A stretch of 52,240 nucleotides of DNA from Eubacteriales bacterium (GTDB lineage Bacteria; Bacillota; Clostridia; Oscillospirales; CAG-272), in contig JAZUPL010000059.1 of the NCBI GenBank assembly GCA_045605175.1, positions 1-52,240 on the forward strand, given 5' to 3'. Below the pieces are notes generated by a model, which was not told where the DNA came from, made no database searches, and worked only from the letters and a program-made list of their open reading frames with translations. Made by a program: the position numbers and the translations under genes. This document shows positions 23,735-39,489 of this stretch, one piece after another; position 1 is the stretch's first letter, and each line of letters opens with the position of its first letter.

Positions 23735-23762
23735 AAAAATCCCCCGTTTCGGGGGATTTTTT
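23735..23762 (+). terminator. Intrinsic terminator after ABC-F
   Basis: AAAAATCCCCCG-TTT-CGGGGGATTTTTT. Confidence 0.8.
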
Positions 23763-24156: not shown

Positions 24157-24475
24157 ATTTTTATCATGTTTTGTTGTGCCAAACGCACCGCTTTTTTGTG
24201 CTGAAGAATGTCGATAATTATGGATCGACACAAGCCTTGTGCAACATATACAATTATTCCGACGTATATCGGGTGAAGGTTTGGAATGTGGGTGTACTTA
24301 CAGGGCGAGGAAAATGTTTTACAATAGTGGTGTCGATAGGCGGTGAGCGTACGGCACCGTATAATCGACCAATTCAAGGAAGGGTGGAAAACCAAAGTCC
24401 CTGCCAAAAATCGAGCAACACCTCATACCAAAGGTACAGGGAAAAAGGGGAAGCACCTCCACAGAAAGGAGAGAA

Positions 24476-24820
24476 ATGAAAAAACGAGCAAAATACCAAA
24501 ACGAACTGCCACGAAAAATGTACGCATTCTTTATAGGGTATAGCGGCATGGGAGCGCCAAGTTTTACAAAATTCGGGGTAAGCATGGGGCTAACGCTGGC
24601 AGATATCGAAAGGTTTCGCAGATACGATGAGTTCGAGAGAGCATACCGTGAATGCAGTGAAATCCGAAGAGATTATCTTATTGACAACGCGCTGGCAAAG
24701 AAGAACGATGCATCTTTAACCAAGTTCCTGCTCTCGGCAGAGTTCGGCATGGGCGAGGAAAGCCCTGACGATGACGCTTCATCCCTCTCGGTTACGGTGG
24801 AGGTGGTGGACGGCAAATGA
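24476..24820 (+). CDS. Putative terminase small subunit (P22 gp3-like)
   Basis: Immediately upstream of terL with ATGA overlap; PSF..FG..MG..EF..A..LIDNAL..KFLL pattern and C-terminal beta strand VTVEVV. Confidence 0.7.
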   Translation: MKKRAKYQNELPRKMYAFFIGYSGMGAPSFTKFGVSMGLTLADIERFRRYDEFERAYRECSEIRRDYLIDNALAKKNDASLTKFLLSAEFGMGEESPDDDASSLSVTVEVVDGK

Positions 24821-26181
24821 AACTGCATCTAACCGTTACAAAAAAACAACGCGAGTTTATTGACGCACCTGAGAGCGAAGTGCTCTTTGGAGGAGCGGCA
24901 GGCGGAGGAAAGTCCTACGGTCAGGTTGTGGATGCTCTGCTCTTTGCATTAAAGTACCCAAAATCAAAGCAATTGATACTGAGAAGAACCTATCAGGAGT
25001 TGGAGAAGTCGCTGATACGAACCGCCCTCTCGCTGTATCCCAGAGAGATATTCAAGTTGAATGCCTCCACGCATACGGGTAGGTTTGTCAACGGTTCTTG
25101 TATAGATTTTGGTTACTGTGCGGGAGAAAATGACGTCTATCAATATCAGTCTGCCGAATATGACGTGGTGAGGTTTGACGAACTTACCCACTTCACCGAG
25201 GGACAATACCTCTACCTTATTTCCCGTGTCAGAGGTGCTAACGGATATCCCAAGCAGATAAAGTCCTCTACCAACCCCGGCGGAGTGGGACATACCTGGG
25301 TAAAGGCGAGATTTATAGACGCCTCGCCTGCCGGCGTCCCCTTCGTCGGTGAGGACGGAATGAAACGGATATTTATCCCGTCTATGCTTAGCGACAATCA
25401 CTTCCTCTGCCAAAGCGACAGTGGGTATAGGCAAAGACTTCTTGCTCTACCCGACAGAGAAAGAAGAGCGCTCCTTGACGGTGACTGGAATATTTTTGAC
25501 GGGCAATATTTCTCGGAGTTTTCCACCAAGCATCACGTTTGCAACCCCTTTGAAATCCCCTCGGGATGGCGAAGATATCGCACAATTGACTATGGTCTCG
25601 ACCGTCTTGCGGTATTGTGGATTGCATTGTCGCCCGACGGGGACGCCTATGTCTATCGAGAGTTTTGCAAATCCGACCTGCCAATAAGTGTCGCGGCACA
25701 GGAAATAGTCGCCCGCACTGCAAAAAACGAGGACATTTATGCCACACTTGCACCGCCGGATATGTGGTCGCGAACACAGGAAAGCGGCAAGACGAAGGCT
25801 GGTCTTTTCTCGGAATACGGGGTTAATATGACCAAGACCTCCAACGACCGCGAGTGTGGATGGCTTGCCCTTAAAGAGATGCTGGTAGTAGGTGAAAACG
25901 GCCCTAAACTACACATTTTTTCCACCTGCACCGAGATTATAAAATGCCTGCCCGCCCTGACGGTAGATAAACTTCGTCCCACCGACTGCTCCACCGAGCC
26001 TCACGAACTCACACACGCACCCGATGCTCTCAGGGGTTTTGCTATATTCCACCACCGTCCAAACAAGGATACAGGAAATCCTCGCAAAACTCGGTGGAGC
26101 AAGGATATGTGGGAGGATTACTACACCGCAGGCGAGGAGGCAAGACAATATCTTAAAAACAAATATGGAGAACCAATTTGA
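24817..26181 (+). CDS. terL: Phage terminase large subunit
   Basis: Walker A FGGAAGGGKS, Walker B VVRFDE, coupling motif STNP, RNase H-like nuclease IDYG and HAPDALR. Confidence 0.93.
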   Translation: MKLHLTVTKKQREFIDAPESEVLFGGAAGGGKSYGQVVDALLFALKYPKSKQLILRRTYQELEKSLIRTALSLYPREIFKLNASTHTGRFVNGSCIDFGYCAGENDVYQYQSAEYDVVRFDELTHFTEGQYLYLISRVRGANGYPKQIKSSTNPGGVGHTWVKARFIDASPAGVPFVGEDGMKRIFIPSMLSDNHFLCQSDSGYRQRLLALPDRERRALLDGDWNIFDGQYFSEFSTKHHVCNPFEIPSGWRRYRTIDYGLDRLAVLWIALSPDGDAYVYREFCKSDLPISVAAQEIVARTAKNEDIYATLAPPDMWSRTQESGKTKAGLFSEYGVNMTKTSNDRECGWLALKEMLVVGENGPKLHIFSTCTEIIKCLPALTVDKLRPTDCSTEPHELTHAPDALRGFAIFHHRPNKDTGNPRKTRWSKDMWEDYYTAGEEARQYLKNKYGEPI

Positions 26182-27953
26182 AAATCAGTAATCAACCACA
26201 ACAAAGATTAGAAATCTTCTCCTCGCTCTACGAAAATGCATTAAGCGCCATATCGCCGATATACGAAGATATGGACAAACATATGCGACAGTACAAAGGC
26301 TCACGAGAGATTGACGACTCGGTGGAGGAGGCTCTCACGGTAAGAAACATCACCTACGAAATAGTCGAGAGCCAGGTATCCTCGGATATTCCCTACCCCA
26401 AGGTCGATCCCGTCTCATACAGCGAGAGAAGAGAAAGAAACGCCGAATCGGTGGAAAGGCTTTGTCGCTCTATTCGCAACAGACTCCCCTTTGAGGAACT
26501 TAACGATATGGACGAAAGATACACCTACATCTACGGCGGAAGCGTATGGTATGCCGAATGGGAACATGATACAGAGTATATGGGCGAGATGGGTACGGTT
26601 AAGATACACTGCCTCTCCCCCCGCGACTTTATACCTCAACCCGGCATCAGCCATATCGACGATATGGAATACTGTTTCCTCAGACTTACCACCACTCTCG
26701 ACGAGGTGAGCCGAAAATATGACAAAAGTTTAGAGCAACTTGGGGAGGCAGAATTTGCCTTTGAGAGCGATAACTATCTCGAAGAATCCGAAGCCATAAA
26801 CGTAATTGTTTGCTTTTGGCGTGATGAAGTGGGTGATATTTCACGCTTTGTTTTTTCGGGCGACGTAATATTATCCGATATTCCAAAATTCTATCACAGA
26901 AAGAGTTTAAGATGCAGTCTTTGTGGCCAAGACGAGCAAGGTTGTAAATGTGACACGCCCCTATTGGTAGAAAGCGAGGTCGAGCGCGAGGTACTTACCG
27001 AAAACAAACTGCTTCGCTCGGGATATTTGATCCCCGCAATAGCCCCGAAAATTGCAGAGAGAGGGGGAAAGGGCGGCTCGCATCACACCGAAATCCCCTA
27101 TTATGTACCCAAGGTATTCCCCATCGTCATAAGGAGAAACACCTCCTCGGAGGGCGAGTTGTTCGGTCAATCGGATTGCGACTATATTAGACCTCAGCAA
27201 CAGGCTATAAACAAGATAGAGTCTCGCATTCTGCAAAAACTTTTACGTGCGGCGGTAACCCCAATTATGCCCGAAGATGCCACCGTCAGTGCCTCCAACT
27301 CAATATTCGGTCAGGTTATAAGAATGAAACCCGGAGAAAATCCCGGTCAGTATGGCAAGGTGGACACCACACCCAATATAGCCCAGGATATAGCAGAGGC
27401 AGAAAGACTCTACGACCAGGCGAAGAGAATTATAGGCATCTCCGACGCCTTCCAAGGCATCGACACAGGACTTAACGAATCGGGTGTGGCAAAACAACTT
27501 CGTATTACCCAAGCAAGAGGCCGTCTTGATTCTAAGAAAAAGATGAAATACAGCCTATACGCATCGCTTTACCGTGTCATTTTCGGTCTTTATCTCGCCT
27601 TCGCAGATGAGCCAAGACAACTCGCCTTCAAGGACGCCTTCGGCAGAGTGCATCAGGCTCAGTTCAACCGTTATGACTTTATCGAATATGATGTTCGATC
27701 GGGCGAGTATTACTATGACGATGCCTATCTGTTCTCGACAGACTCAGGCGAGGGTGATGCCGACCAGAGAGAACTTCAATGGCAGAGAAACCTCGAAAAC
27801 CTCAGGTCGGGAAGCCTTGGCGATCCGTCAAGTGTATCTACACTCTTGCGCTACTGGCAATGTCAAGAGAGAGCGCACTACCCCAACGCCAGAGAAAACG
27901 TGGAATATTTCACCGAGGCATTAAAGGCAGAGGGAGGTGTTACCTATGTCTGA
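26178..27953 (+). CDS. Phage portal protein
   Basis: 591 aa directly after terL (TTGA overlap); NITYEIVESQV, SPRDFIPQP, FPIVIRRN, LFGQSD, QQQAINKI, GISDAFQG and SGVAKQ are portal-like. Confidence 0.8.
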   Translation: MKISNQPQQRLEIFSSLYENALSAISPIYEDMDKHMRQYKGSREIDDSVEEALTVRNITYEIVESQVSSDIPYPKVDPVSYSERRERNAESVERLCRSIRNRLPFEELNDMDERYTYIYGGSVWYAEWEHDTEYMGEMGTVKIHCLSPRDFIPQPGISHIDDMEYCFLRLTTTLDEVSRKYDKSLEQLGEAEFAFESDNYLEESEAINVIVCFWRDEVGDISRFVFSGDVILSDIPKFYHRKSLRCSLCGQDEQGCKCDTPLLVESEVEREVLTENKLLRSGYLIPAIAPKIAERGGKGGSHHTEIPYYVPKVFPIVIRRNTSSEGELFGQSDCDYIRPQQQAINKIESRILQKLLRAAVTPIMPEDATVSASNSIFGQVIRMKPGENPGQYGKVDTTPNIAQDIAEAERLYDQAKRIIGISDAFQGIDTGLNESGVAKQLRITQARGRLDSKKKMKYSLYASLYRVIFGLYLAFADEPRQLAFKDAFGRVHQAQFNRYDFIEYDVRSGEYYYDDAYLFSTDSGEGDADQRELQWQRNLENLRSGSLGDPSSVSTLLRYWQCQERAHYPNARENVEYFTEALKAEGGVTYV

Positions 27954-28695
27954 AATCAAAGGTTTGGAAGAATATATGCGAAACTACTTTCGCTCCACCA
28001 CCCTTGAAAACGGACCTATGAGTTTCTCGACCTTCAAGTCGCAAACCGGCTCTAACCCTGCGGGCGACTACGCCCGTGCCATGAGTGCTGCAGCCAAAAA
28101 GGCTATCAAAAACAGTTCCTCCTACGGCACAGGCGCTGTCGATATGCAAAAACTTGGGCTTACAGGCACCGGATATAGTGACTATCTCTCAGCCCTCGAA
28201 AAGGATAGCCTTGCAAGAACCGAGGCAAGTCTTCTGACAGATAGAAAGCGAGCCGAATACGACGAGGCGCAAAACTATCTTTCCTATCTAACAAAATATG
28301 CTGAAAAGCAGCAGGAACTAAACACTCGCATTACCGACGCCTTGGTGCGTGAACGTATAACCGATGCCAATACCGCATACCTTTACGGAATACATAACGG
28401 GCTTTCTCCCGAAATGGCAAAAAAGGCGGCGAGCGACTCGTACGGTCTTATTAGGCAGAAACTAATCTCCGAAATTCTATCACGGGCGGCATCCTTGGAA
28501 CTTGATGGCGAGGGCGCCGAGATATATGCAAGACATATGGGAATGTCGGACAGTGATGCTAAAATGATAGGAGAACAGGCAAAAGAACTCTATGCCCACT
28601 ATTTGCAGATATCCGATGAATATCTCGACTATTTAGACCGATTAGACGAACAAGGCGACCACACCAACGGCAAATATGTTATCAAAGATAAATAA
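27946..28695 (+). CDS. Hypothetical helical virion protein (possible internal/ejection protein)
   Basis: Ala/Tyr-rich helical sequence with LGLTGTGYSDY; ATG at 27946 follows GGAGGT and overlaps the portal stop. Confidence 0.5.
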   Translation: MSEIKGLEEYMRNYFRSTTLENGPMSFSTFKSQTGSNPAGDYARAMSAAAKKAIKNSSSYGTGAVDMQKLGLTGTGYSDYLSALEKDSLARTEASLLTDRKRAEYDEAQNYLSYLTKYAEKQQELNTRITDALVRERITDANTAYLYGIHNGLSPEMAKKAASDSYGLIRQKLISEILSRAASLELDGEGAEIYARHMGMSDSDAKMIGEQAKELYAHYLQISDEYLDYLDRLDEQGDHTNGKYVIKDK

Positions 28696-28710
28696 AGAAA
28701 GGAAATTATT

Positions 28711-28848
28711 ATGAGCAACAAAAAGGATTTATCCAGCGTTTACAGAACCACTTCTATCCACATCATCAAGGCTCCCGTACCCAACCCTGATAAGCACAGC
28801 GGTAGTGTAATCAAATTTTCGGGAGATGGTCGTGGAGGTAAGAAATGA
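28711..28848 (+). CDS. 45-aa basic microprotein (absent from the ORF track)
   Basis: AAAGGA SD; MSNKKDLSSVYRTTSIHIIKAPVPNPDKHSGSVIKFSGDGRGGKK; stop overlaps the next start (ATGA). Confidence 0.7.
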   Translation: MSNKKDLSSVYRTTSIHIIKAPVPNPDKHSGSVIKFSGDGRGGKK

Positions 28849-29318
28849 CCGAACAGGACGTTATCGAACTTGAAAACGAGGTTGACGAGTCTATCGGGGA
28901 GGTAGAAAACATAGTCGTCAAGGAAAACGACAACGATATCGACACAGAAATTCCCTTAAGCGAGCCCGCTATCGAAGAGGGAGATATTGACTACGAAAGT
29001 CTTATGATGGAAGATCTTGCCGAACTTAAAAGGGAGTTTTCCGAACTCGACAGTATTGAAAACATAACCGAACTTTCCAACCCTCTCCGCTATGCGGCAT
29101 TACGTGACCTCGGTCTTTCTCCCAGAGAAGCATATTTGGCAACCTCTCCAAGAAAGACTGCCACAGACAACCGTGCACACCTCTCATCCGCAGTGGGGAG
29201 AACAACCTCAAGACCTAAAACCGCAATACCTCCCGCCCAACTTAGACTGGCAAGAGAGTTATTCTCCGACCTGTCTGACGCAGAAATCAACGCCCTTTAT
29301 CGCAGGGTAACAAAGTAA
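28845..29318 (+). CDS. Putative capsid scaffolding protein
   Basis: Very acidic N-terminus, helical middle and C-terminal helix-turn-helix (ARELFSDLSDAEINALYRR); directly before the capsid gene. Confidence 0.65.
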   Translation: MTEQDVIELENEVDESIGEVENIVVKENDNDIDTEIPLSEPAIEEGDIDYESLMMEDLAELKREFSELDSIENITELSNPLRYAALRDLGLSPREAYLATSPRKTATDNRAHLSSAVGRTTSRPKTAIPPAQLRLARELFSDLSDAEINALYRRVTK

Positions 29319-29379
29319 ACAAAACAGATGCGAACCTAACTCGGGAAAACCACCCGGGTAAGGCTCGCAAAATTGCCGT

Positions 29380-29397
29380 GAGATTTTCACGAGCAAA
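29380..29397 (+). repeat. Left arm of inverted repeat flanking the capsid gene
   Basis: GAGATTTTCACGAGCAAA; 29383-29397 is the exact reverse complement of 30501-30515. Confidence 0.85.
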
Positions 29398-29442
29398 ACT
29401 AATCCAATTATAAAAAACAAATAATAACAAGGAGAGAATTAA

Positions 29443-30492
29443 ATGGTAATCTATTCTAAAAATGACGGTGCTCATTTTGCCGCAATAGGCAGAATTGAAA
29501 CGCCTATTAAAATGATAATCGAAAGAGAGAGTAATATTCTTGACCAAAAAGGGGGTATTTGCGACTGGTTGTTCAATGTAGAAAAGAGCAACCGTTTCGC
29601 TGAAACCATTGTTAGTCAGGGCGACTTCGGAATCTTCATGTCAACATCTGAGGGCGAAGATGCAAATCAGGATAGTTTTATAGAAAACCCCGGAAAGTAT
29701 ATCGAACATATTCAGTTCACAAAGGAATTCGTAATCACAGCTGAGATGATGGAAGATGCTGTAAACGGTATCGCAACAGATGCAAAAAGAAGGGCAGAAA
29801 GTTTTACCCGTGCTTATTACAGAACGAGAAACAAAATATGCGAAACTGCTCTTGCCAAAGGCAACGAATATTCTGCGAATTTTGGCGGTACTACCCTAAA
29901 TCTTACGACATGGGATGACTTGCCACTCTTCCACAACAGTCACAGTTGTGGCAACATGCCCCAATCAAACTACTTCTGGGGCAACTTTACTACCTCTGCC
30001 AGCGATTCAACCAAACTCGACGCCCCAAGATTTGCAGAAGTGCTCTATATGCTTTCCCACGAACTTCGTTCGATGAAGAGCGATAATGGTGAAATTCTTG
30101 GATACACCGCTGACACCATCATTCTTCCCGGAAACAGACCTAAACTTGAGGCTATGGTAAAGGCGGTTTGCGGTAGCGAAACCTCCCCCTTCACCACCGA
30201 CAACAATATCAACCTCCACTATGGCAACTGGAATATCATAGTTCTTCCCTCGTGGACAACCACAAGAGATGAGTTTATGCTGATGTCTTCCGAGGCAAAC
30301 AAGAATATATGTGGCAATATGTTCTTCAACCGCATACCTCTTTCAATAGACAACTGGATTGACCATCGTTCAGGCAACTATATCTGGACTGGTAGATGTC
30401 GTTTTGGTGTAGGTTTTGGTAACTATAAGCATATTCTCCGTGCTATCAACTCCACCGATGAAATCGAAGACGCAACCGAGCTTATTGTATAA
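29443..30492 (+). CDS. Major capsid protein (HK97 fold likely)
   Basis: 349 aa after the scaffold; strong AAGGAG SD; SEGE..DSF.E..K.IEH..F..EF.IT.EMMED, D.LPLF..H and R.R.GVGF patterns. Confidence 0.8.
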   Translation: MVIYSKNDGAHFAAIGRIETPIKMIIERESNILDQKGGICDWLFNVEKSNRFAETIVSQGDFGIFMSTSEGEDANQDSFIENPGKYIEHIQFTKEFVITAEMMEDAVNGIATDAKRRAESFTRAYYRTRNKICETALAKGNEYSANFGGTTLNLTTWDDLPLFHNSHSCGNMPQSNYFWGNFTTSASDSTKLDAPRFAEVLYMLSHELRSMKSDNGEILGYTADTIILPGNRPKLEAMVKAVCGSETSPFTTDNNINLHYGNWNIIVLPSWTTTRDEFMLMSSEANKNICGNMFFNRIPLSIDNWIDHRSGNYIWTGRCRFGVGFGNYKHILRAINSTDEIEDATELIV

Positions 30493-30500
30493 CCGTTTGC

Positions 30501-30570
30501 TTTGCTCGTGAAAATTTCTAAATAATCGAGCACGGGTGCAGACTTGCTCGTTTTCGGGCGCTGCACCCGT
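30501..30570 (+). repeat. Right arm of the inverted repeat plus a strong hairpin after the capsid gene
   Basis: TTTGCTCGTGAAAATTTC (30501-30518); ACGGGTGCAG/CTGCACCCGT 10-bp stem (30532-30570). Confidence 0.8.
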
Positions 30571-30591
30571 TAATTCAAAAAAGGAGGAAGA

Positions 30592-31419
30592 ATGACTTAT
30601 AATCAATTAAAAAAGGATGTATTTCGTCTGGGTTTTGAGACGGTCATTGAGGATGAAAATATTCTTCTCGGAGCTGCAAACTCTGCCCTTGACCTGATAT
30701 ATCTCGACCGTCCGAGAGTAAAAACTTCAAGGCTCTACGTAAAACCTGTGCATTTCGTCCTGTGCCGCGAGTACTTATACATAAAAGGAAATACGGTGAC
30801 TGTACCCCTTGAGGGTGACGCCTATTCATTCACCGCCGTCGGCCGGGGAAAATACACCTTACAATCCCGCGAAAAAAAGGTTAGCCATAACATTTCACTT
30901 GGTGATCTTAATCACAGCGGGCGCCTGGACTCGAGTGGAACTATAACCTTTGAGAGCGAAAGCGGGCTTACAATATACAACCTCGCCTCGATAAAGGAAC
31001 TCGCAGAGGATTTATCAATTCCGCTTTATTCACGGTTAAGAGAGGTGGATCCAACAAACGGCGACGGTGACCTCAGATCCTTTTGCCACAGTCCCTACTA
31101 TGCCGACGGAAAAGAAGTCAAAGAGGCGGTGCTTAAAGGCGAAAAACTGTTTTTACCCGCCGAATTTCAGGGCGAAATCTTCCTTGACTACTACCGAGCA
31201 CCCACACATATAACGGCAGACAACCCGGAACAGAGCATAGATATTTCCGAGGAGGTATCCCCCCTGCTCCCCCTGCTCACCGCCTCATATTTGTGGCTGG
31301 ATGATGACAGCGAAAAGGCTCAGTATTATATGGCTCTGTACCGTCAATCTCTGGCAACTGTAATGCGTTATTCGATTCGCTCTCTGGACTCGAAATACAA
31401 AACTAACGGGTGGGCTTAA
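30592..31419 (+). CDS. Putative head-tail adaptor (podovirus gp11/gp4-like)
   Basis: Position after the capsid gene; N-terminal helices and C-terminal YYRAP..I....D.S..LLP..ASYL..DD....Y pattern. Confidence 0.6.
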   Translation: MTYNQLKKDVFRLGFETVIEDENILLGAANSALDLIYLDRPRVKTSRLYVKPVHFVLCREYLYIKGNTVTVPLEGDAYSFTAVGRGKYTLQSREKKVSHNISLGDLNHSGRLDSSGTITFESESGLTIYNLASIKELAEDLSIPLYSRLREVDPTNGDGDLRSFCHSPYYADGKEVKEAVLKGEKLFLPAEFQGEIFLDYYRAPTHITADNPEQSIDISEEVSPLLPLLTASYLWLDDDSEKAQYYMALYRQSLATVMRYSIRSLDSKYKTNGWA

Positions 31420-31420
31420 T

Positions 31421-34099
31421 ATGGCGGTTTACAGAAAAAACGGAACTCAAAACCAATATACCAAAGCCTACACCAATCTTCGAGGAATCAGAGCGACGGG
31501 CGGGGACGGCGAAGTAGAATATATGGAAAACCTCTACCGTGACTACCACAGCAGCGGAGGGGGATTCCCCGAGAGCGTACCCGGTTACAGACTCTTAACT
31601 AAATTACCCTATAAAATCAATGCCATTTATCCCCTGGGCTCAAGCGACACCACCAAACTTATTATCCACGCCGGCACTTCGCTTTACGTCGTGCCTACAA
31701 GTGCACCGTCTAATTTTATAAAGATAGCAGATATCGGCATTTCGGAAAGTTCCGCCTTTCGATTCGGCAATTATCTTTATTTGTTGTCGGGTGGAAAAAT
31801 GTTCAGAATCAGCACCTCCGGGCTTATACAGGAGGTCGGTGACGACAAGGAGGTAAAACCCTATTCACCTATTGTGTATTTTGACGATGAGAAGTACGAG
31901 CAGCGAAACCTGTTAAGCAATAGAGCAAGAGAACGAATCAGAGTATTCAGTACAGAGCGTTTTGCTTACGGTAGTAAGGGTATAAAATATCACATAGTGG
32001 ATACCGTGTTAAGATATTGCTCGGTTGTTGGGATAGATAGCGAGTTCAGCGGCGCACTTTATATCCCGGGCTATACCCGTATCGGGACTGACGAATACAA
32101 GGTCGTTGACATAGAGGACAAGGCTTTTGCACAAAACACAAGTATTACCGAGGTGCATATTGGTGAGGGGGTTGAGAGGATAGGCAAATTTGCTTTTCAA
32201 AAGAATACTGCATTAACGAAACTTACAACTCCTCGGTCTTTAAGAATAATCGACAACGCCGCCTTTCAGGACTGTACGTCACTGTCCGAGGTTTATCTTT
32301 CGGACGGGCTTGAATACGCCGGCATTGCTGTATTTAATTTCTGCCTATCTCTGAAGAAAATGAACTACTCCCTTGACGAAACCCACTTTAAGGCAATAGA
32401 AAACTACGACCTGATAGACAATTATGAACTTATCTATGAAAGCGAGAATCTTTCAGGAAGAGTAGCCATCCCGATACACTCCGAGGCAAATAGTTGCCAA
32501 AGGGTGACGATTGATCAAGAAGAGATCGAGTTTGAAACAGAGACAGAAAACGGCAAGCCCTGTGCAGTGCTTTTAGACACACAAACGCCCTGGTCGTTGG
32601 ACGGAAAGACGATAGAAATAGAACTGCTTCTTCCCAATTTGTTTTCCCGTTTCGACGGAACAGGGGGTAACGAAGGGCAGATTGAAGGCAAGGCGGCTAT
32701 CTGCGGTTGCAGAATAAGTGAAAAGTTTGACGGACGCATTTTCCTAAGCGGAAACATAAATCTCCCCGGTTCGGTATTTTATTCTGCTGTGGGAGTTGAG
32801 GGTGACGGCGAACCGCTTTATTTCGGAGAATATAACTATTTCAACGACTCAAGAGGCGAGGCAGATATCATATCAATGATGGCGGTGAGGGACTCGCTCG
32901 CAATATTCAAAAACAAGGACGACGGACAAGGAAGCATTATTTACCACTACGGAAAGGACACCGAAGACGATGTAGTGCCGAGAGTATATCCTATAAGTTC
33001 GGTTCATTCGCAACTCGTTGCATGTGGGGCTTCCCGCAATTTCTTTGATGACCCGGTGTTCATATCCCCCTTAGGATTATGTGGAATTGAGCACCGCCAA
33101 CTTGAATATGATAGAAGCATTTCGGTCAGATCCGAAAATGTAAACTACTATTTACTTTCAGAAGATCTCAAAAATGCCGAAATTGTCGAGTGGGAGGGCT
33201 ATCTCTGCATATCGGTCGGAGGCAATATGTATCTCGCTGATTCAAGGGACATAAGCAAGAATCGGCTCGGCAAAATACAATACGAATGGTATATGATAAG
33301 AGGTGTGGGACACTACGATAACGCCATGCCCGTGTACCGTTATTCGCTTAGCAACTCGGATGCATTATCCGAGCACCCCAACCTTGACAGGAAGGTAGAA
33401 GGAATTGTATTCAGTAGTATTTTAACGGATAAAGACGGCGAAAATTCTTTGATGTATTTCACTATGGAGCAGGGTAAAAGGTTTGCCGTTGCACCAACCG
33501 AAGAAACCAAAGGCGGCATCTTCAAAGAAGGCAGATGCTTTACCTCGGACGACGGTATTCATCTTTACTTTACCGCAAGCGACGGATACCTGTACACCTT
33601 CAATAACGATATGCGAGGAATAGCGCCCGAGAGAATACGCGAATCTTTCGACTTCGACGAGGACGAATATTCCTCGGTAATGAAACACAAAATTCACCCG
33701 GATTTTTACGATTTTGGTGGAAGGTCTGTGCGTTATGCCTTGAGGACAAGGGCCGATAACTGCACCTCGCCACACCTGTCTAAGGATACTGTAAAAGGCT
33801 CTTTGGTGGTAAAGTTAAAGAACTTCGGTCGCACTTCTCTAACTCTTGAAGTAGGTACTGACAGGTCGGGTTACAAGGAGATTGTCGAATTTAGCCCCTC
33901 AGATATCGATTTTTATGACATAGATTTCTCAGGTTTTACATTTGCCCTTGCAGACAGTTATACCCTGCCCTTCGGCGAAAAAGAAAAAAACTGGATAGAA
34001 AAGTCGATTTCGCTATATACCGAGAATTTCAGAAGTCCAATAGGTGTAGAAACTGTCGCCTTCCGCTATCGCCTGCGTGGGAAAATAAAGAAAAGATAA
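31421..34099 (+). CDS. Putative tail nozzle/stabilisation protein (beta-propeller, T7 gp12/P22 gp10-like) with an inserted BspA-type LRR domain
   Basis: NLRG, MENL, DGRIFLSGN, VFYS, LAIFK, PVFISPLG and RSENVN beta-rich repeats; IEDKAF/IGKFAF/IDNAAFQDCTSL LRRs. Confidence 0.65.
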   Translation: MAVYRKNGTQNQYTKAYTNLRGIRATGGDGEVEYMENLYRDYHSSGGGFPESVPGYRLLTKLPYKINAIYPLGSSDTTKLIIHAGTSLYVVPTSAPSNFIKIADIGISESSAFRFGNYLYLLSGGKMFRISTSGLIQEVGDDKEVKPYSPIVYFDDEKYEQRNLLSNRARERIRVFSTERFAYGSKGIKYHIVDTVLRYCSVVGIDSEFSGALYIPGYTRIGTDEYKVVDIEDKAFAQNTSITEVHIGEGVERIGKFAFQKNTALTKLTTPRSLRIIDNAAFQDCTSLSEVYLSDGLEYAGIAVFNFCLSLKKMNYSLDETHFKAIENYDLIDNYELIYESENLSGRVAIPIHSEANSCQRVTIDQEEIEFETETENGKPCAVLLDTQTPWSLDGKTIEIELLLPNLFSRFDGTGGNEGQIEGKAAICGCRISEKFDGRIFLSGNINLPGSVFYSAVGVEGDGEPLYFGEYNYFNDSRGEADIISMMAVRDSLAIFKNKDDGQGSIIYHYGKDTEDDVVPRVYPISSVHSQLVACGASRNFFDDPVFISPLGLCGIEHRQLEYDRSISVRSENVNYYLLSEDLKNAEIVEWEGYLCISVGGNMYLADSRDISKNRLGKIQYEWYMIRGVGHYDNAMPVYRYSLSNSDALSEHPNLDRKVEGIVFSSILTDKDGENSLMYFTMEQGKRFAVAPTEETKGGIFKEGRCFTSDDGIHLYFTASDGYLYTFNNDMRGIAPERIRESFDFDEDEYSSVMKHKIHPDFYDFGGRSVRYALRTRADNCTSPHLSKDTVKGSLVVKLKNFGRTSLTLEVGTDRSGYKEIVEFSPSDIDFYDIDFSGFTFALADSYTLPFGEKEKNWIEKSISLYTENFRSPIGVETVAFRYRLRGKIKKR

Positions 34100-34120
34100 C
34101 AAGTAGTAAAAGGAGTTAAA

Positions 34121-34477
34121 ATGAAAGCAACAAAAATTACCGAGGGAGAGATATCAGATCTGCTTATTTCTTCCCTGCCGACAAGACCAACCGCACCCAC
34201 CTCCTTTGGTGGAAAGGGCTTTACGGCATCAGATATGAAAGCGGCGTTTGACGCTCTGCCTCTTTATATAAAGGACAGGTTGAACCTGCTTATAGACAAC
34301 ATCTCTTCATCGGGTGAGGATTCGGTCGCTCACTCGATACAAACAGGCATAAAAGAGGACTATACTCTCGCCAATCTTTTCGAGGATATACTCAGCGGTA
34401 ATATACTTACTCTTATCAATTTTGACGGTGAAACCCTGTATAGTTTTCTACTAAGAGTCAGGGATATGCTCGCATAG
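34121..34477 (+). CDS. Small virion-associated protein (tail fibre N-terminal-like)
   Basis: SSLPTRP..G.G.TASDMKAAFD...RLNLLID; AAGGAG SD; follows the nozzle gene. Confidence 0.5.
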   Translation: MKATKITEGEISDLLISSLPTRPTAPTSFGGKGFTASDMKAAFDALPLYIKDRLNLLIDNISSSGEDSVAHSIQTGIKEDYTLANLFEDILSGNILTLINFDGETLYSFLLRVRDMLA

Positions 34478-34487
34478 GGGAGGTTGT

Positions 34488-34883
34488 ATGACTAAAATAG
34501 AATACTCTACCTTCTCTGGCATAGGCGAGTGGCGAAACTACACCAAGGGGAGCGAAATAACCGAATTTTCCTTTCCTGACACCAAGGACGGCAACCTGAT
34601 TATAGGTGGTTATATATACCCCTTATGCGCCGGTATTGCCACAGTCAATGCAAAGGAGATAAAAGATGGTATTTATCGCCCAAAAATTAACACGGGTGCC
34701 TGTATAATAGCCTTAGAGCCTATCGAAATCAAAAAAGGAAACATCAGTCCCGTTCCCACCGAGGAACAAACAGTAAGACGTCTGTGCAGCCGTTTGGAAG
34801 TGGCAGAGAAGCAGATAGAAACCTTGACCGAGATATGCTATCAACTGCAAAGCAGAATGGGCAACAGCCTACACCTGTTTTGA
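34488..34883 (+). CDS. Hypothetical protein (beta-rich N-terminus, C-terminal coiled coil)
   Basis: GGAGG SD; intact ORF within the operon. Confidence 0.7.
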   Translation: MTKIEYSTFSGIGEWRNYTKGSEITEFSFPDTKDGNLIIGGYIYPLCAGIATVNAKEIKDGIYRPKINTGACIIALEPIEIKKGNISPVPTEEQTVRRLCSRLEVAEKQIETLTEICYQLQSRMGNSLHLF

Positions 34884-34916
34884 ATTTTTCACCGAATAAA
34901 CAAGAAAGGAAACCAG

Positions 34917-35708
34917 ATGAAAAGAAGTATTAAATTTATTATTTTCACCCTTATGCTTGCCTTGATGCTACTCCCCCTTTCGGCAAGCGCCGAGAGTCTT
35001 TCGGAAAATACCGAAACAAACGCGGGCTCAACCGTCTCCGAAGAAGCGGTAAGCACCGACAACGAAGTGGGTATAATAACCGAGCAAGACAAAATAGCAG
35101 AAGATGCCCCACCCCCTGACAATATAGAACAAGAGGAAAAGGGCGATAATCAAATCGAGCAGGGTGACAACAACGACGCTCCCACCGAAGATGAAAACAC
35201 CGCCGCCGGCGCAGGCGACAAGGGGGATAACCCTTTTGAAATGATCTACAACTTTGCCACCCTGCATATAGGCGAGATATTTTCAATTCTCTCCTTTATC
35301 TCTGCGGCACTTGTTGCACTGCTTTATAACAAGGGACTTCTGCCCGCCTTAAAAAATTCGCTCTCGGCTATGGCAAACATACTCTCCGGAGTCAAGGATT
35401 CTACCGAAAAGAGTGAAAACCTATCTAATGAAATGCGACAGCAACTTCTCGAAAAGCTCGACATAGCAGAGGGCGGCCTTAAAACTATGGGTGACTCGAT
35501 TGCCACTCTCACCGAGCGTCTTGACAGTCTTACCGATTCTAAGGATGAGCAGGAAAAAATGCGCTTAATTATGAATGCACAAATAGATATGCTTTACGAA
35601 ATCTTCCTGTGCAGTAGTCTTCCCGAATATCAAAAGGAGGCTGTGCGCGAGAAGGTGGCGGCTATGAAAGAGGTGCTTTGCTGTGAAAAGCAAGAAAACG
35701 CCGATTAG
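34917..35708 (+). CDS. Single-pass membrane protein with signal peptide, acidic ectodomain and coiled-coil tail
   Basis: MKR..LMLLPLSASA signal peptide; D/E/N-rich linker; TM IFSILSFISAALVALLY; heptad-rich C-terminus. Confidence 0.7.
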   Translation: MKRSIKFIIFTLMLALMLLPLSASAESLSENTETNAGSTVSEEAVSTDNEVGIITEQDKIAEDAPPPDNIEQEEKGDNQIEQGDNNDAPTEDENTAAGAGDKGDNPFEMIYNFATLHIGEIFSILSFISAALVALLYNKGLLPALKNSLSAMANILSGVKDSTEKSENLSNEMRQQLLEKLDIAEGGLKTMGDSIATLTERLDSLTDSKDEQEKMRLIMNAQIDMLYEIFLCSSLPEYQKEAVREKVAAMKEVLCCEKQENAD

Positions 35709-36057
35709 TATTTTGCTTTGGGTTGTGGGTATGCTACTCTGTGTGGGCGCACCGCTTATAGCAACACTCTCCTACTTTCCCGTTTGGGTGGCGCAGGGTG
35801 GCGAGTTTGTCATTTCCGGCTTTACCCTGCTTATCGCTATTATATGCGCTTTGCCCCTTTACAGGTGGCTTAAAAACGGAATTTCATCCCCCTCGGGGAT
35901 TACCGTGTGGCTTGTGTTATTCCTTATATTTTTTGCACTTGCAAGGGTAGCAAACGAGATGACCGTAATTGCCTTCGTCGGATTCGTGGGAAACATTCTT
36001 GGAGGAATAGCCTTCAAAATTAGCAAAAAACTAACAGAGGAAGGAAAGAATGAATAA
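35683..36057 (+). CDS. Four-TM membrane protein
   Basis: Four hydrophobic segments; overlaps both neighbours; GAGG SD. Confidence 0.7.
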   Translation: MKSKKTPISILLWVVGMLLCVGAPLIATLSYFPVWVAQGGEFVISGFTLLIAIICALPLYRWLKNGISSPSGITVWLVLFLIFFALARVANEMTVIAFVGFVGNILGGIAFKISKKLTEEGKNE

Positions 36058-36895
36058 CGACTTCGACCCGACGCTCTTAGCCTCAGGCAACCTGGTTAAA
36101 AAGGGATATAGGCTCCTGGCAGAAAACGTGGGAAAAACGATAGCCCTGATTACCGCTATCATTGCCGTACTCGTAAGTTTTACCGAGATTGGATTCTACG
36201 AATTTGGCTCAAAGGAGATGACAGCCAACCTTATTCTTATCACGGTGGCGTCATACATAATATATTTCTCTATGGAAGATGCAGGCGAGAGGCTTGGCAG
36301 ACAGAGCGAAGAATATCTCTCTTGCGAAAAGTCGTACATCGAGATTCGCGACAAGATAGAGGCCGGCGACACCCAACTTCTGAGAGAATATTGCAAGGAA
36401 TACACCGAGGCAGAACTCGAACACAGGCGAGCGATGATGCTGGCAGAGGGTGGACTCACCCCCAAGGACTACGCCGACTATCTTGATGGCAACAAATTCC
36501 CACTTAAAGAGAGATTCACCCTATACCGTGCTAAAAATTCACGCCCGATAGACCTCACGATAGGCACGCTATTAAGCGAGAGAAATAGCGAAACAAAGGA
36601 ACTTCGTAATCCTGATGCACTTAAACCCCTCCGTCTATTTCTCTCTTTGATTCCTTCCACTCTTTGCACCTTTTTTACCGTATCGGTTATGCTCAGCACC
36701 CGTGACGGACTTACGGTAGAAACCGTTATTGAGAGCATTCTCAAACTCTCCTGTCTGCCAATCGTGGCACTGAGAGGTTATTCTCGTGGATACACCCACG
36801 CAAAAGAGGGGCAAAGCGCCTGGTTGCGCGTCAAGACATCCCTGCTTTGCGGCTACCTCAAAAAGAAGGACGAATTACTTGCCAAGACAAAATAG
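36050..36895 (+). CDS. Membrane protein (2 TM, soluble helical loop, 2 TM)
   Basis: Hydrophobic pairs around aa 30-75 and 195-240; last gene before the terminator. Confidence 0.7.
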   Translation: MNNDFDPTLLASGNLVKKGYRLLAENVGKTIALITAIIAVLVSFTEIGFYEFGSKEMTANLILITVASYIIYFSMEDAGERLGRQSEEYLSCEKSYIEIRDKIEAGDTQLLREYCKEYTEAELEHRRAMMLAEGGLTPKDYADYLDGNKFPLKERFTLYRAKNSRPIDLTIGTLLSERNSETKELRNPDALKPLRLFLSLIPSTLCTFFTVSVMLSTRDGLTVETVIESILKLSCLPIVALRGYSRGYTHAKEGQSAWLRVKTSLLCGYLKKKDELLAKTK

Positions 36896-36942
36896 CATAG
36901 TTTTCACAACTGCTAAAGGTCTTAAAAACTCGTAAAACGAGT

Positions 36943-36975
36943 CCACCTCCGCCAAAAGCGGAGGTGGTTTTATTT
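36943..36975 (+). terminator. Intrinsic terminator closing the capsid cluster
   Basis: CCACCTCCGC-CAAAA-GCGGAGGTGG followed by TTTTATTT. Confidence 0.85.
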
Positions 36976-37018
36976 TGTGTTTTCTTGGTTAAATAAATGC
37001 AAGTTGACATTTTACTGA

Positions 37019-37047
37019 TTGACATACAGATAAAAATGGGTTATACT
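37019..37047 (+). promoter_or_regulatory. sigmaA promoter of the helicase gene
   Basis: TTGACA-17 bp-TATACT. Confidence 0.75.
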
Positions 37048-37080
37048 TTAATAGAAGAATTTATGTAGAAGGAGGTTGTT

Positions 37081-39489
37081 ATGCGATACGATGAAAATAG
37101 GAAACTGATGCTTGTATCCCTCAGGGAATTTGTCACCCTTGCAAGACGCGGAATTGCCACCACCCTCCCCTACGACGATGAAGAACCTACCATTACCGAC
37201 ATCTCAAAAGCAGAAGGTAAAAGGCTTTCCTTGCCGGAGAGCAAAAAGCTGTTGAGGCTCTCCTTTTCTCTTGGTGATATTGACTACGAACTTTACGCCG
37301 AGGCTGAAAATATAAAGTCCAACGAAATTACCGTTGTTCGCTCGCTTGACGGAAAACCAAAAAAGAACGATATTGCAGAGTGCAGGGGCGAGGCGTTTGT
37401 CCTCGGATATGCACTTATAAAAAAAGGAAATTTTGACAAAGTACATCTTCGTTTTATCTATATCAATAGAATTAGCGGCGAGCAGGAAGAGAGCGAGGAA
37501 TGGGTAGAGAGAGAAAGACTCGATTCCTTTTTCCAAAAATGCTCGGTGTCTGTGGGAATATACGGCAAACCGGAGTTGGAAAGGGCGCTTGAAAGACTCC
37601 CCTCTATGAAGTCCTGTGCCTTTCCTTACAAAGAGATGCGAGAGGGGCAGGATAACTTTATCCGCGCGACCTATCGCAATATCGCAAGGGGAACAAGACT
37701 CTTTGCCACCGCCCCCACGGGTACAGGAAAGACGGTGTCGGTACTCTTCCCCGCCCTGCGTGCCTTAGGGGATAGACGAGTTGACAAGGTCTTTTACCTC
37801 ACGCCAAAGACCACCACTATGGGTGTGGCTAAAGACTGTATAAACGATTTTTCTAAAAACGGCGTAAAGGTGCGTGCTGTTGCCCTTACAAGCAAGGAAC
37901 GCTCCTGCAAAAACCGACTCGTATGTCGAGATGACCGACGTCTGTGCGAAAATTCAAAGAGCAGAAAACTCGCCGACGCGGTACTTGAACTGTTTTCGCT
38001 TAACAAGGCGGTAATAACACTTGATGAAATTGGCAAGGTAGCACCGAAATATTCGGTATGTCCGCACGAATTGGGGCTGGCCTACTCTGAACTGTGCGAT
38101 GTGGTAATTTGCGACTTCAACTACCTGTTTGATCCTGCGGTGTATATCCGCCGTTACTTTAATGAAGGAGGCAGATTTGCCTTTCTCGTGGACGAGGCGC
38201 ACAACCTTGTTGAGCGTGCAAGAGATGGATACTCCTGCGAAATTACCACAGAAGAACTAAATATGCTCGCTGACAGTGGGATATATGGAGAATTTAACCC
38301 CTTTAAGTCAGCGCTCAAAAAAGCAAGCGAAGAACTTTATATTCTCTTCTATCCCTATCTTGAAGACGGAATTCATAAGGATAAGGAGGACAACAAGCTA
38401 GCCGCTACGCACCTAAGCGAAGTACCCCCAAGATTCTACGAAATTATTGACGAACTAAGCGAGGCCGCCGAGGAAGAATTTTATAGTGCTGAGTCGGACA
38501 AAAACGAGAGTGCTTTGCCAAGAAAGAGGGCGATAAAAGAACTGCGCCTCAAACTTGCTCGCGTAAATAATTCTTTACAATTGTTTGATGATAAATTCCG
38601 AATACTCTTATTCCTTGAGGGCGAAAAAATCACGATAAAACTATTTTGCCTTGACACGGGTGGGGTGATCTCGCAAAAACTTGACAAGGGCTCGTCTGCC
38701 ATACTGTTTTCTGCGACCCTATCCCCACTATCCTATTACCGCGACCTGCTCGGCGGCGACAGAACAAGCGAAATCTTAGAGGTTTGCTCCCCCTTTGCAA
38801 AGGAACAGGTGTCTGTTTCCATAATGGATAGCATTAGCCTTCGCTATTCTGAGAGGGAGCGCACTCTCCCGGCAGTATGTGCTGCAGTGGCAGCAACGAT
38901 GATACCGAGAAAGGGCAACTATATGGTATTCTCCCCCTCTTTTGAATACTCAAATGCTCTCTCGGAGATGTTCAGAAAAAAATATCCTAAACTTACCGTA
39001 CTAACTCAGCAAAAAGATATGACTCCTGCAGAGAAAAAGGCTATGCTCGACGAGTTTGAAAAAGACAGAGAGGGCTACTTGGTCGGATTCTGCGTTATGG
39101 GTGGTATTTATTCCGAAGGTATAGACTTAGTCGGCAAAAGCCTTATCGGTGCTGTGATTATTGGAATTGGTATGCCTGTGCTCTCCTATGAAAGAGAGGC
39201 TATGCGTGACTATTTCGAGTCTAAATATGACGCGGGCACACAGTACGCCTATATTTACCCGGGAATGAACAGGGTTTTCCAGGCGGCGGGCAGAGTTATT
39301 CGCAGCGAGGATGACAGGGGCGTTGTAGTTTTAATAGACGATAGATTTGACGACCCAATATATAAAAAAAGCATCCCCTCTCTGTTAAAGGGAATGCAAT
39401 ACGTGGAAGAGCACAAGGTCTTAAAGGCTCGAATAGAAGAATTCTGGCGAGAGATTGACGAGGAAAACGCCCGTTCTTCCCAAAACTAA
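37081..39489 (+). CDS. DinG/Rad3(XPD)-family Fe-S DNA helicase
   Basis: APTGTGKT, Fe-S cluster cysteines, CPHE, DFNYLFDP, VDEAHNL, FSATL, SEGIDL and QAAGRVIRSEDDRG. Confidence 0.92.
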   Translation: MRYDENRKLMLVSLREFVTLARRGIATTLPYDDEEPTITDISKAEGKRLSLPESKKLLRLSFSLGDIDYELYAEAENIKSNEITVVRSLDGKPKKNDIAECRGEAFVLGYALIKKGNFDKVHLRFIYINRISGEQEESEEWVERERLDSFFQKCSVSVGIYGKPELERALERLPSMKSCAFPYKEMREGQDNFIRATYRNIARGTRLFATAPTGTGKTVSVLFPALRALGDRRVDKVFYLTPKTTTMGVAKDCINDFSKNGVKVRAVALTSKERSCKNRLVCRDDRRLCENSKSRKLADAVLELFSLNKAVITLDEIGKVAPKYSVCPHELGLAYSELCDVVICDFNYLFDPAVYIRRYFNEGGRFAFLVDEAHNLVERARDGYSCEITTEELNMLADSGIYGEFNPFKSALKKASEELYILFYPYLEDGIHKDKEDNKLAATHLSEVPPRFYEIIDELSEAAEEEFYSAESDKNESALPRKRAIKELRLKLARVNNSLQLFDDKFRILLFLEGEKITIKLFCLDTGGVISQKLDKGSSAILFSATLSPLSYYRDLLGGDRTSEILEVCSPFAKEQVSVSIMDSISLRYSERERTLPAVCAAVAATMIPRKGNYMVFSPSFEYSNALSEMFRKKYPKLTVLTQQKDMTPAEKKAMLDEFEKDREGYLVGFCVMGGIYSEGIDLVGKSLIGAVIIGIGMPVLSYEREAMRDYFESKYDAGTQYAYIYPGMNRVFQAAGRVIRSEDDRGVVVLIDDRFDDPIYKKSIPSLLKGMQYVEEHKVLKARIEEFWREIDEENARSSQN

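Follow-up and report, generated by a model that had tools for sequence, protein, structure and literature searches.

A probably domesticated short-tailed phage particle operon and candidate gene transfer agent in a genus of gut Clostridia

Does a compact run of phage head, packaging, and tail genes among the core genes of a gut bacterium mark a decaying prophage, or has it been retained by its host, perhaps as a gene transfer agent (GTA)? We addressed this question for an operon of 13 intact, co-oriented open reading frames (ORFs) at positions 24476-36895 (+ strand) of contig JAZUPL010000059.1 from an Eubacteriales bacterium (Oscillospirales, CAG-272; assembly GCA_045605175.1). The window, i.e., the whole stretch of 52,240 nucleotides that was analyzed, is one entire contig of a 2.04-Mb metagenome-assembled genome (MAG) that is 96% complete and is referred to here as the source genome (G000). 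The cluster is 12.4 kb long, its ORFs encode proteins of 114-892 aa, and those without an established name are called g4, g5, and g9 to g13 after their place in the operon. Our combined results make it very probable that a phage particle operon has been domesticated, and they slightly favor a GTA-like function for it. A first-pass annotation had proposed a host-domesticated DNA-packaging particle; the distribution of the cluster, the trees, proportions of nonsynonymous differences (pN) below those of synonymous differences (pS), and the lack of a recombinase support domestication, while the idea of a fixed locus had to be given up.

The cluster is close to universal in its genus. The gene for the large terminase subunit (TerL) was detected in 34 of the 36 other species, the two misses being MAGs that are 72% and 76% complete. 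At a threshold of E<=1e-110, which misses some known cluster carriers (e.g., G026), the capsid gene was found in 181/213 genomes of the genus and in 67 of the 74 of high quality (completeness of 90% or more, contamination of 5% or less). Elsewhere in the family, its occurrence was patchy (17/148 genomes, 13/96 genera). A search across species genomes with a 14-row capsid alignment found 228 relatives; the best 80 of these, which were analyzed, had capsids 56-66% identical, were all from uncultured MAGs and, where the record titles name a host, came mostly from ruminants (deer, sheep, goat, yak). The best 120 of 2059 capsid relatives were MAG hypothetical proteins labelled Clostridia or Ruminococcaceae bacterium. 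Of the 50 sufficiently long loci, 42 had all 11 core genes; at ten loci from other families, TerL alone was matched at 1e-5. Parts of the window were also found in 14 animal-gut metagenome runs from 8 studies. For 4 runs from 3 studies, the contigs covered all bins of 20500-40400, spanning both cluster edges, and no contig joint that skips the cluster was seen in those runs, in which contigs show presence, not absence.

The cluster is inherited vertically with the chromosome and is under purifying selection in most species. Quick single-gene trees of TerL and of one host marker, histidyl-tRNA synthetase (HisRS), built for 28 shared genomes, had 13 of 25 bipartitions in common (with permuted labels, 0.18 on average and never more than 3), and their patristic distances were correlated (Mantel r 0.79, p 1e-4). 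In the closest pair of genomes (G001/G031), DNA identity was 66-76% in the cluster and 71-75% in the flanking core genes. We report pN against pS rather than dN/dS because synonymous sites are saturated: in this pair, pN was 0.15 for TerL, 0.20 for the portal, and 0.14 for the capsid, next to 0.16 for DinG, 0.15 for methylthioadenosine (MTA) nucleosidase, and 0.14 for LuxS, with pS at 0.55-0.86 in all genes and mostly saturated. The adaptor, nozzle, g11, and g13 genes evolve faster (pN 0.28-0.46), still with pN below pS, as in all remaining cluster genes, and three further genome pairs behaved alike. The two checks suggested in the first-pass annotation, comparison of the TerL tree with the host and a look at selection, thus both spoke for domestication, the trees being congruent and pN lying well below pS as in the flanking core genes.

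The equipment of a prophage, namely, a recombinase, a lysogeny and replication module, and attachment (att) repeats, was not found with the resident cluster. The tyrosine recombinase family PF00589 had no match on any cluster contig among 37 genomes of the genus, and no integrase or resolvase is present on the source contig. In a survey of serine recombinases (PF00239) covering 35 genomes (two without a TerL match were left out), a match shared the contig of the resident cluster in G031 only, about 75 kb from the cluster; the other match that shared a contig (G004:C44) lies 13 kb upstream of an extra TerL copy. Among the 13 operon ORFs, Pfam, PHROGs, and hydropathy revealed no tape measure, tail tube, endolysin, integrase, repressor, or replication protein. 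A tRNA scan of the window found none, and no pair of direct repeats in the window brackets the cluster; the absence of an integrase, a tape measure, and att-like repeats noted at first reading stands. A phage-derived structural and packaging cluster in the chromosome that has no integration, lysogeny, or replication genes, as found here, is one feature of a GTA; the exception is a replisome-organizer gene in G001, taken up below. The cluster also matches its host in composition: its GC content is 46.3%, compared with 44.3 +/- 2.3% in 12.4-kb windows of the genome, and GC at third codon positions (GC3) is 0.50, compared with 0.51 in the neighboring genes.

The likely ancestry of the operon can be read from its phage relatives. 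Capsid relatives in IMG/VR fell into two classes, 55-61% identical on short contigs and 44-50% identical on contigs of up to 48 kb. Five long records (41.8-48.0 kb; CheckV 90-100% complete) include one with terminal repeats (G214, 48,036 bp), one flagged as a provirus (G213, 45,259 bp), and two with a PF00589 integrase, among them the one with terminal repeats. The gene order in these phage kin is TerS (small terminase subunit), TerL, portal, a 429- or 730-aa protein, a giant ORF, a g5 homolog, capsid, adaptor, nozzle, and a fiber fused to g9; in G214, g12 and g13 follow the fiber and precede a block of opposite-strand genes. The giant ORF (3471-4268 aa) carries an ART-PolyVal domain (E 3e-17) and is therefore a polyvalent protein. 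Polyvalent proteins of 2600-4300 aa lie between the portal and scaffold genes in G214 (26376-39182; L260 6376-19182), L209, L205, L212, L193, and L215. G214 and G213 share with the cluster homologous TerS, TerL (41-55%), portal (40-45%), g4 N terminus, g5, capsid (44%), adaptor, nozzle, g9 domain, g12, and g13, in the same relative order throughout in G214; the G213 capsid was not resolved among its called ORFs. The phages differ from the cluster in being 3.5-4 times larger, in the integrase (2/5 records), the opposite-strand gene block, the polyvalent protein, a full-length fiber, and a basic N-terminal arm on TerS, and in having no resident promoter motif.

The giant gene appears to have been lost and to have left a fossil beside the intact operon. 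In the 760-bp spacer upstream of the operon, a tblastx comparison of 23700-24480 with the fetched loci identified two fragments with a broken reading frame, matching L209 (62% over 45 aa, E 4e-14) and L202, L204, and L205 (62% over 34 aa), with the matches falling inside ORFs of 2597-2713 aa. The first-pass annotation had seen no frameshift decay at this locus; broken phage-gene fragments sit directly outside the operon, on the minus strand.

Genome G004 has a second related element beside its resident cluster (L031 = G004:C44; L087 = G004:C26). Upstream of the TerS gene of this element are a 387-aa gene resembling helix-turn-helix (HTH) or sigma-r4 proteins and small ORFs, with the serine recombinase 13 kb upstream. 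The extra TerL copy is misplaced in the TerL tree, and the element extends onto another contig, where its capsid is 45% identical. Recombinase, misplaced TerL, and capsid together mark it as a true prophage of a related lineage (G004b).

Resident clusters further share a putative promoter. A promoter scan of the window independently recovered 24281-24325, and the sequence [AG]TACTTAC was present upstream of TerS in 41 of 62 species regions, against an expectation of 0.011 per 350 nt. The shared layout begins with a T-rich stretch containing TTGTGCA-N3-TGCACAA, a strict inverted repeat in 10 of the 41, which may resemble CRP/FNR or Rex operators. It continues about 25 nt on with TTTGGAAG and, 7-8 nt further, with (C/T)ATACTTACA, which contains a TTACAA -35 element, and ends in a TATA-type -10 element 17 nt beyond the -35 element. 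The full motif occurs once in the 2.04-Mb source genome and was not found upstream of TerS in the phage kin. A conserved, genome-unique motif with predicted promoter function would fit host-integrated control of the operon.

The features of the locus are collected in Table 1. Where the first-pass annotation had counted 14 intact, co-oriented genes, we found 13, intact and co-oriented as described, and none of the gaps among them has room for a further ORF of at least 50 aa. Overlaps link TerS and TerL (4 nt), TerL and portal (4 nt), portal and g4 (17 nt), g11 and g12 (26 nt), and g12 and g13 (8 nt), and the adaptor and nozzle genes (g7/g8) are 1 nt apart. The terminators placed at 24126 and 36943 in the first pass were recovered as terminator-like hairpins, with an additional one at 23740, downstream of the ABC-F gene, and the position between an ABC-F gene and a DinG gene agrees with the Pfam matches of both flanks. 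The other genes of the contig are core genes (HisRS, LspA, an RluD-type pseudouridine synthase, an amino-acid ABC transporter, MTA nucleosidase, LuxS, and a class II aminoacyl-tRNA synthetase). An Rfam scan found no regulatory RNA near the operon; an FMN riboswitch at window positions 50569-50697 (-), scoring 101.6 bits, is unrelated to it.

Table 1. Features of the operon and its surroundings (window positions)
Feature	Position	Strand	Size	Basis or description
ABC-F gene, upstream flank	21768-23717			ABC_tran E 8e-52; ABC_tran_Xtn
Putative fossil, two frameshifted fragments of giant polyvalent virion-protein gene	23772-24055	-		tblastx
Terminator-like hairpin, 5' of operon promoter	24126-24150	+		11-pair stem, then T run
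Predicted conserved promoter, TTGGAAT-N7-GTACTTACA	24281-24325	+		-35 CTTACA 24297-24302, 17-nt spacer, -10 TACAAT 24320-24325
TerS	24476-24820	+	114 aa	phrog_3064 E 5e-10
TerL	24817-26181	+	454 aa	Terminase_3 E 6.5e-12; Terminase_6N E 6.6e-9; phrog_979 E 5e-48
Portal, P22/SU10 type	26178-27953	+	591 aa	PF16510 E 1.4e-8; PF23899 E 6.4e-8; phrog_156 E 1.7e-36
g4, helical, acidic	27937-28695	+	252 aa	N-terminal part of 730-aa post-portal protein of provirus G213
g5, scaffold-position protein	28845-29318	+	157 aa	pI (isoelectric point) 4.3; homologs upstream of phage capsid genes
Major capsid protein, predicted HK97 fold, Mu gpT/Phage_capsid_4 type	29443-30492	+	349 aa	AlphaFold2 (AF2) model and Foldseek
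Probable head-to-tail adaptor	30592-31419	+	275 aa	SU10_adaptor E 4.5e-5, 24.4 bits (cutoff 27); between capsid and nozzle
Predicted tail nozzle, BspA-type leucine-rich repeat (LRR) insert at residues ~200-380	31421-34099	+	892 aa	AF2 and Foldseek
g9	34121-34477	+	118 aa	N-terminal (anchor) part of fiber-like proteins in phage kin and divergent subclade
g10, no family, poorly conserved	34488-34883	+	131 aa	Detected in 21/80 related loci
g11, predicted membrane protein	34917-35708	+	263 aa	Hydropathy: N-terminal signal/transmembrane (TM) segment, acidic low-complexity region, second TM segment, coiled C terminus
g12, basic, predicted membrane protein	35683-36057	+	124 aa	Four hydrophobic segments; phage G214 homolog 33%, E 3e-22
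g13, predicted membrane protein	36050-36895	+	281 aa	Hydrophobic segments at both ends; phage G214 homolog E 3e-11
Terminator-like hairpin, operon end	36943-36967	+		10-11 pairs, 8 G-C, then T run
DinG-type helicase gene, downstream flank	37081-39489			Helicase_C_2 E 2.5e-37; DEAD_2

The packaging genes are intact, and TerS is shorter than in the phages. TerS proteins of resident clusters have 104-119 aa, compared with 150-176 aa in phages (in an alignment with G004b, 150; G214, 170; and G213, 176), and lack a basic N-terminal arm of about 40 aa that the phage proteins have; the HTH-like core is kept, so we do not claim a loss of DNA binding. TerL has a Walker A motif (GGAAGGGKS) and a Walker B motif (VVRFDE). 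The g4 protein matches the 730-aa protein of G213 (blastp 34% over 100 aa, E 8e-8) and evolves fast, with 24-34% identity between most species. The g5 gene is present in 80/80 related loci; its homologs in G214 and G213 (272 and 303 aa, E about 1e-16) lie shortly 5' of the capsid gene, and its position and composition suggest a scaffold protein. The 349-aa protein downstream is predicted to have the HK97 capsid fold: its AF2 model (predicted local distance difference test [pLDDT] score 81) matched the T4, phi29, HK97, SU10, and RcGTA capsids in Foldseek (E about 1e-10), a profile search of the PDB returned the Mu gpT-type capsids 8rkx and 8rkc (E 5e-4), and the Atlas score with Mu-like_gpT/Phage_capsid_4 clusters was 0.99 (phrog_371, E 0.0016). 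Against 50,697 phage records, the capsid matched only 2 unannotated fecal fragments, at 28-29% identity. No family was found for g4, g5, g9, g10, g12, or g13 in Pfam and PHROGs.

Two side observations concern the capsid region. The nearest species, L099, has a TerL 92% and a portal 86% identical to those of the window, and the source-genome capsid is at most 66% identical to that of any relative; a sharp recombination mosaic in the capsid gene (window against L099) was considered and dropped, nucleotide identity shifting merely from 81% to 75%. Many relatives and the provirus G213 have a gene of about 137 aa between the scaffold-position and capsid genes (L021 8589-9005, L022 11365-11778, L032 10911-11315, and L037 8658-9071), which the window lacks.

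The nozzle fold supports a short-tailed particle. Its AF2 model (pLDDT 84) matched the cyanophage A4 tail best in Foldseek, followed by Carin-1, E1004, LME-1, the PhiM1 nozzle, T7 gp12, SU10, and P22 gp10 (E 6e-16 to 1e-9), in agreement with the podovirus-like architecture first annotated; a PDB profile search with the nozzle alignment returned LRR proteins only. The LRR domain (LRR_5, E 5e-18) is missing from the nozzle of one relative (L108, 595 aa). A PDB profile search with the adaptor alignment gave no match, and the protein is probably an adaptor judging from its subthreshold SU10_adaptor match and gene position. Adaptor and nozzle on a portal, and the lack of any tube or tape-measure-type ORF among the 13, are the gene content of a podovirus. 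Matches of g9 are limited to the N terminus of ORFs of 359-1122 aa (fiber-like proteins of 405-1122 aa); being the N-terminal part of larger proteins in relatives, g9 looks like a fiber cut down to its anchor.

By hydropathy, g11, g12, and g13 are predicted membrane proteins. The only PHROG match of g11 is phrog_1009 (E 6e-4), g12 is holin-like by shape only, and an Atlas search with g13 gave merely weak, subthreshold SLATT leads (0.75-0.77). The Amidase_3 genes of the source genome sit away from the cluster, one of them beside an integrase; this gene (G000:C39:3892-6458), about 1.5 kb from a tyrosine integrase, may end a different prophage remnant.

Several findings weigh against a domesticated, GTA-like operon. 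Its location is not fixed: the ABC-F gene lies upstream at 27/51 loci, the DinG gene lies downstream at 24/49, and both are present at 13 of 39 assessable loci, while clusters of a divergent subclade adjoin unrelated host genes. The expectation that relatives would hold the same genes at the same place is thus borne out for the gene set, near-universal in the genus, and not for the locus. At the first 19 loci, the alternative flanks were orthologs of genes on other G000 contigs, and flanks shared on one side only (ABC-F-cluster-X and Y-cluster-DinG) speak more for rearrangement around a resident element than for re-insertion. Among five divergent-subclade genomes checked for an empty site, DinG was found in four, always on another contig than ABC-F. 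The gene order is circularly permuted in 3/72 loci (L163, L168, and L175 = G014:C14), running from g5 and capsid to g12 and then TerS, TerL, and portal. In 4 of 80 loci (L113, L160, L162, and L166), nozzle through g13 have been lost; TerS through adaptor are intact there, only about 700 bp separate the adaptor gene from DinG, and elsewhere in these four MAGs the nozzle profile matched only host LRR proteins, never in its nozzle-specific part. G001 keeps a Phage_rep_org_N replisome-organizer gene (E 1e-37) directly 5' of TerS (L026 16343-17347); DNA homologous to it was not found at that place in the sister species G031. A strict capsid match is missing in 7/74 high-quality genomes, and TerL evolves about 1.6 times faster than HisRS. 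Because related active prophages infect the same genus (G004b), some exchange is possible, and, with phage kin of 42-48 kb, the head could still have room for more than the 12.4-kb cluster. An endolysin was recognizable with Pfam neither in the cluster nor in the ten ORFs around g12/g13 of phage G214, and GH25 and Amidase_2 genes were not found in the source genome.

Taking both sides together, we consider it fairly probable that the cluster is the remnant of a temperate phage with a short tail and a genome of about 45 kb, kept as a GTA-like element. Such a phage would have entered an ancestor of this genus of gut Clostridia and would then have lost its integrase, its lysogeny and replication genes, and the giant polyvalent virion protein, with the head, packaging, and short-tail operon thereafter passed on along with the chromosome under the control of a conserved promoter of its own. 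Switched on in a fraction of cells, the operon would direct the assembly of procapsids from capsid, g5, and portal, which the armless TerS and TerL might fill with headfuls of DNA; we infer that this would be chromosomal DNA, as the element has no genome that is excised or replicated. Adaptor and nozzle would close the head, the LRR insert of the nozzle might act as an adhesin in binding to cells, and particles may leave the cell through membrane damage by g11 to g13 together with a host autolysin.

The conservation evidence behind a GTA-like function would equally be explained if phage-like particles were kept for a use other than transfer, as a PBSX-like killer into which DNA is packaged without being delivered, or for programmed lysis, DNA release, or adhesion. 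We regard this as unlikely. Four species with the head and packaging half only would not deliver DNA via a tail, the fiber gene has shrunk to an anchor, and the nozzle has a host-type LRR domain, all of which would suit such a use; intact TerS, TerL, and portal genes under purifying selection argue that packaging matters. To our knowledge, phage-tail-like bacteriocins kill via contractile or long flexible tails and not via podovirus tails, which counts against a killer. The PBSX-like option was left open by the authors who described FpGTA, a GTA of Faecalibacterium (PMC12946183).

It is quite improbable that there was no domestication at all and that genus-specific temperate phages repeatedly lysogenized these hosts and decayed to the same core, with host switches made preferentially between close relatives mimicking codivergence. 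Complete related phages do exist, and G004 carries one with a serine recombinase; the variable locus, the few permuted orders, the replication gene beside TerS in G001, and the patchy capsid across the remaining family would also be explained. Independent decay, however, would not spare an identical set of 11-13 genes in 42/50 loci, hold pN at the housekeeping level with saturated pS, give the cluster DNA the same divergence as both flanks, or produce a common promoter motif that is missing from the phages. No recombinase is linked to any resident copy, and the capsids fall into two distinct classes by identity, resident ones (55-66%) on short contigs and phage ones (44-50%) on long contigs.

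That the operon acts against or with incoming related phages, by interfering with assembly as a defense or as capsids mobilized by a helper, seems to us very unlikely; selection would then act on something other than the operon's own particles. Related phages infect the genus (G004b and the 44-50% capsid kin in IMG/VR), and the operon is without a lysis enzyme or replication of its own; it encodes a complete set of head, adaptor, and nozzle, however, so that a helper part is not obviously needed, and the absence of its promoter motif from the phage kin leaves no obvious wiring to a phage late activator. No defense-type domains were found in searches that did not include the PADLOC library.

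Capsid-forming phage-inducible chromosomal islands (cf-PICIs) reportedly borrow tails, as Alqurainy et al. 2023 are said to have described. A fixed satellite of this kind is scarcely credible here, since, small as the cluster is and equipped with its own TerS, TerL, portal, and capsid, much like a 12.7-kb mouse-gut cluster likened to capsid-forming satellites in a preprint (10.64898/2026.07.08.737213), it has no integrase, no replication or primase gene, and no att repeats, and it has its own adaptor and nozzle and is inherited vertically.

A domesticated operon with a probable GTA-like function remains our preferred interpretation, and it can be set against known systems. Among short-tailed phages, the nozzle fold matches T7 gp12, P22 gp10, and the SU10 tail (E 1e-9 to 1e-13), the portal matches the Pfam families of both P22 and SU10, and the adaptor has a weak match to that of SU10. 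Unlike these tails, the window cluster has a BspA-type LRR in the nozzle, and no tail needle, internal core proteins, or full fibers were recognized in it.

RcGTA, from Alphaproteobacteria, is long-tailed (siphovirus-like), with auxiliary loci elsewhere and known host regulators. GTAs of the RcGTA type and the window cluster are both phage-derived head-to-tail clusters without replication or integration, inherited vertically under purifying selection and with a shortened TerS; the window cluster differs in being short-tailed and confined to a single locus, and it is unrelated in sequence beyond the HK97 fold (6tb9 was among the capsid matches). PBSX of Bacillus subtilis is contractile-tailed and larger, kills rather than transfers, and packages host DNA. 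PBSX, which is also mentioned in the FpGTA article (PMC12946183), and the window cluster are both domesticated phage-like elements of Gram-positive hosts, with no sequence relation.

The closest parallel is FpGTA, described in a preprint in 2024 and by Borodovich et al. (Nat Commun 2026; PMC12946183). As described in the article text, it comprises a 10.5-kb operon of ten ORFs (a TerS in which no DNA-binding domain is obvious, TerL, portal, scaffold, capsid, and hypotheticals; the capsid and portal of FpGTA I are RCH50849.1 and RCH50851.1) and a second, 5.5-kb locus with baseplate, fiber, receptor-binding protein, holin, and endolysin genes (PMC12946183). Its particles, characterized by proteomics, measure about 40 nm and are filled with host DNA of 8.4-8.9 kb; it is found almost throughout its genus and not in neighboring genera, and its authors call it the first podovirus-like GTA (PMC12946183). 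The contrast with characterized GTAs drawn in the first-pass annotation has been overtaken by this publication: a short-tailed kind of GTA is already known from Clostridia, and the window cluster would be a further member. The same text describes GTA-like packaging as the commonest capsid-borne form of bacterial DNA in three human fecal samples and reports it also for Gemmiger, CAG-115, R. callidus, Onthomonas, and Christensenellaceae; it names a candidate operon in Faecalibacterium only, after searches of Gemmiger and Onthomonas MAGs (PMC12946183). A 2026 preprint proposes more clusters in mouse-gut Clostridia (10.64898/2026.07.08.737213).

In three other families of the same order, we observed a second type of compact cluster, about 9.5 kb (L041 7034-16415, L044 6781-16951, and L049 246-5290), with one shared order: TerS, TerL, portal (517-528 aa), a protein of about 190 aa, and products resembling a capsid in size (271-292 aa), an adaptor (134-171 aa), and a nozzle (674-685 aa). 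Homology links the three clusters to one another (28-52% identity), and host genes adjoin them in the two loci that reach the cluster ends. Their TerL is 38-56% identical to that of the window, and portal, adaptor, and nozzle are linked to those of the window by faint matches only. Judging from the single gene that separates portal and capsid and from its size of about 9.5 kb, this second type may, at a guess, lie closer to FpGTA than the window cluster does.

FpGTA is the only gene set tied to fecal GTA-like packaging, and for several producing taxa a locus has yet to be identified (PMC12946183). The window cluster is a well-supported second candidate gene set. If our interpretation is correct, the derivatives reduced to heads and those with a permuted order document the remodelling of such elements, and, together with the second cluster type, short-tailed GTAs would be a general feature of gut Oscillospirales-like Clostridia. 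The comparative series of more than 200 species, complete phages, and fossils shows which podophage parts are kept and which are shed on domestication, and the conserved promoter and LRR nozzle offer handles for finding a regulator and a receptor. As the clusters occur in many ruminant and other gut MAGs, they may matter for gene flow in livestock microbiomes. Our literature searches on GTAs of Clostridia and the rumen, which covered the FpGTA article without its supplements, did not find the genus-wide cluster, its phage kin, the fossil, or the promoter in print.

Compared by gene order and description and not by sequence homology, FpGTA and the window cluster are both compact chromosomal operons of gut Clostridia that run from TerS, TerL, portal, and scaffold to capsid and then conserved hypotheticals. 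Both have proteins of short-tailed-phage type, a short TerS, and no integrase or replication genes, and both are near-ubiquitous in one genus, the window capsid being patchy elsewhere in the family. FpGTA particles have been shown experimentally, whereas the window cluster is known from its genes. No second tail and lysis locus like that of FpGTA was found in the source genome when GH25, Amidase_2, and a second copy of the promoter motif were looked for. The window cluster instead has 13 ORFs in one operon, among them the adaptor, the nozzle, and three membrane proteins, and two genes between portal and capsid where the accession numbers indicate one in FpGTA. The window cluster possibly goes back to an independent domestication. 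More tentatively, and with some doubt on our part, the domestication of a podovirus-type GTA seen here may be both independent of FpGTA and older and larger in scale, spanning a genus of more than 200 species, with an origin in a polyvalent-protein phage, a dedicated promoter, and an LRR adhesin in place of the fiber.

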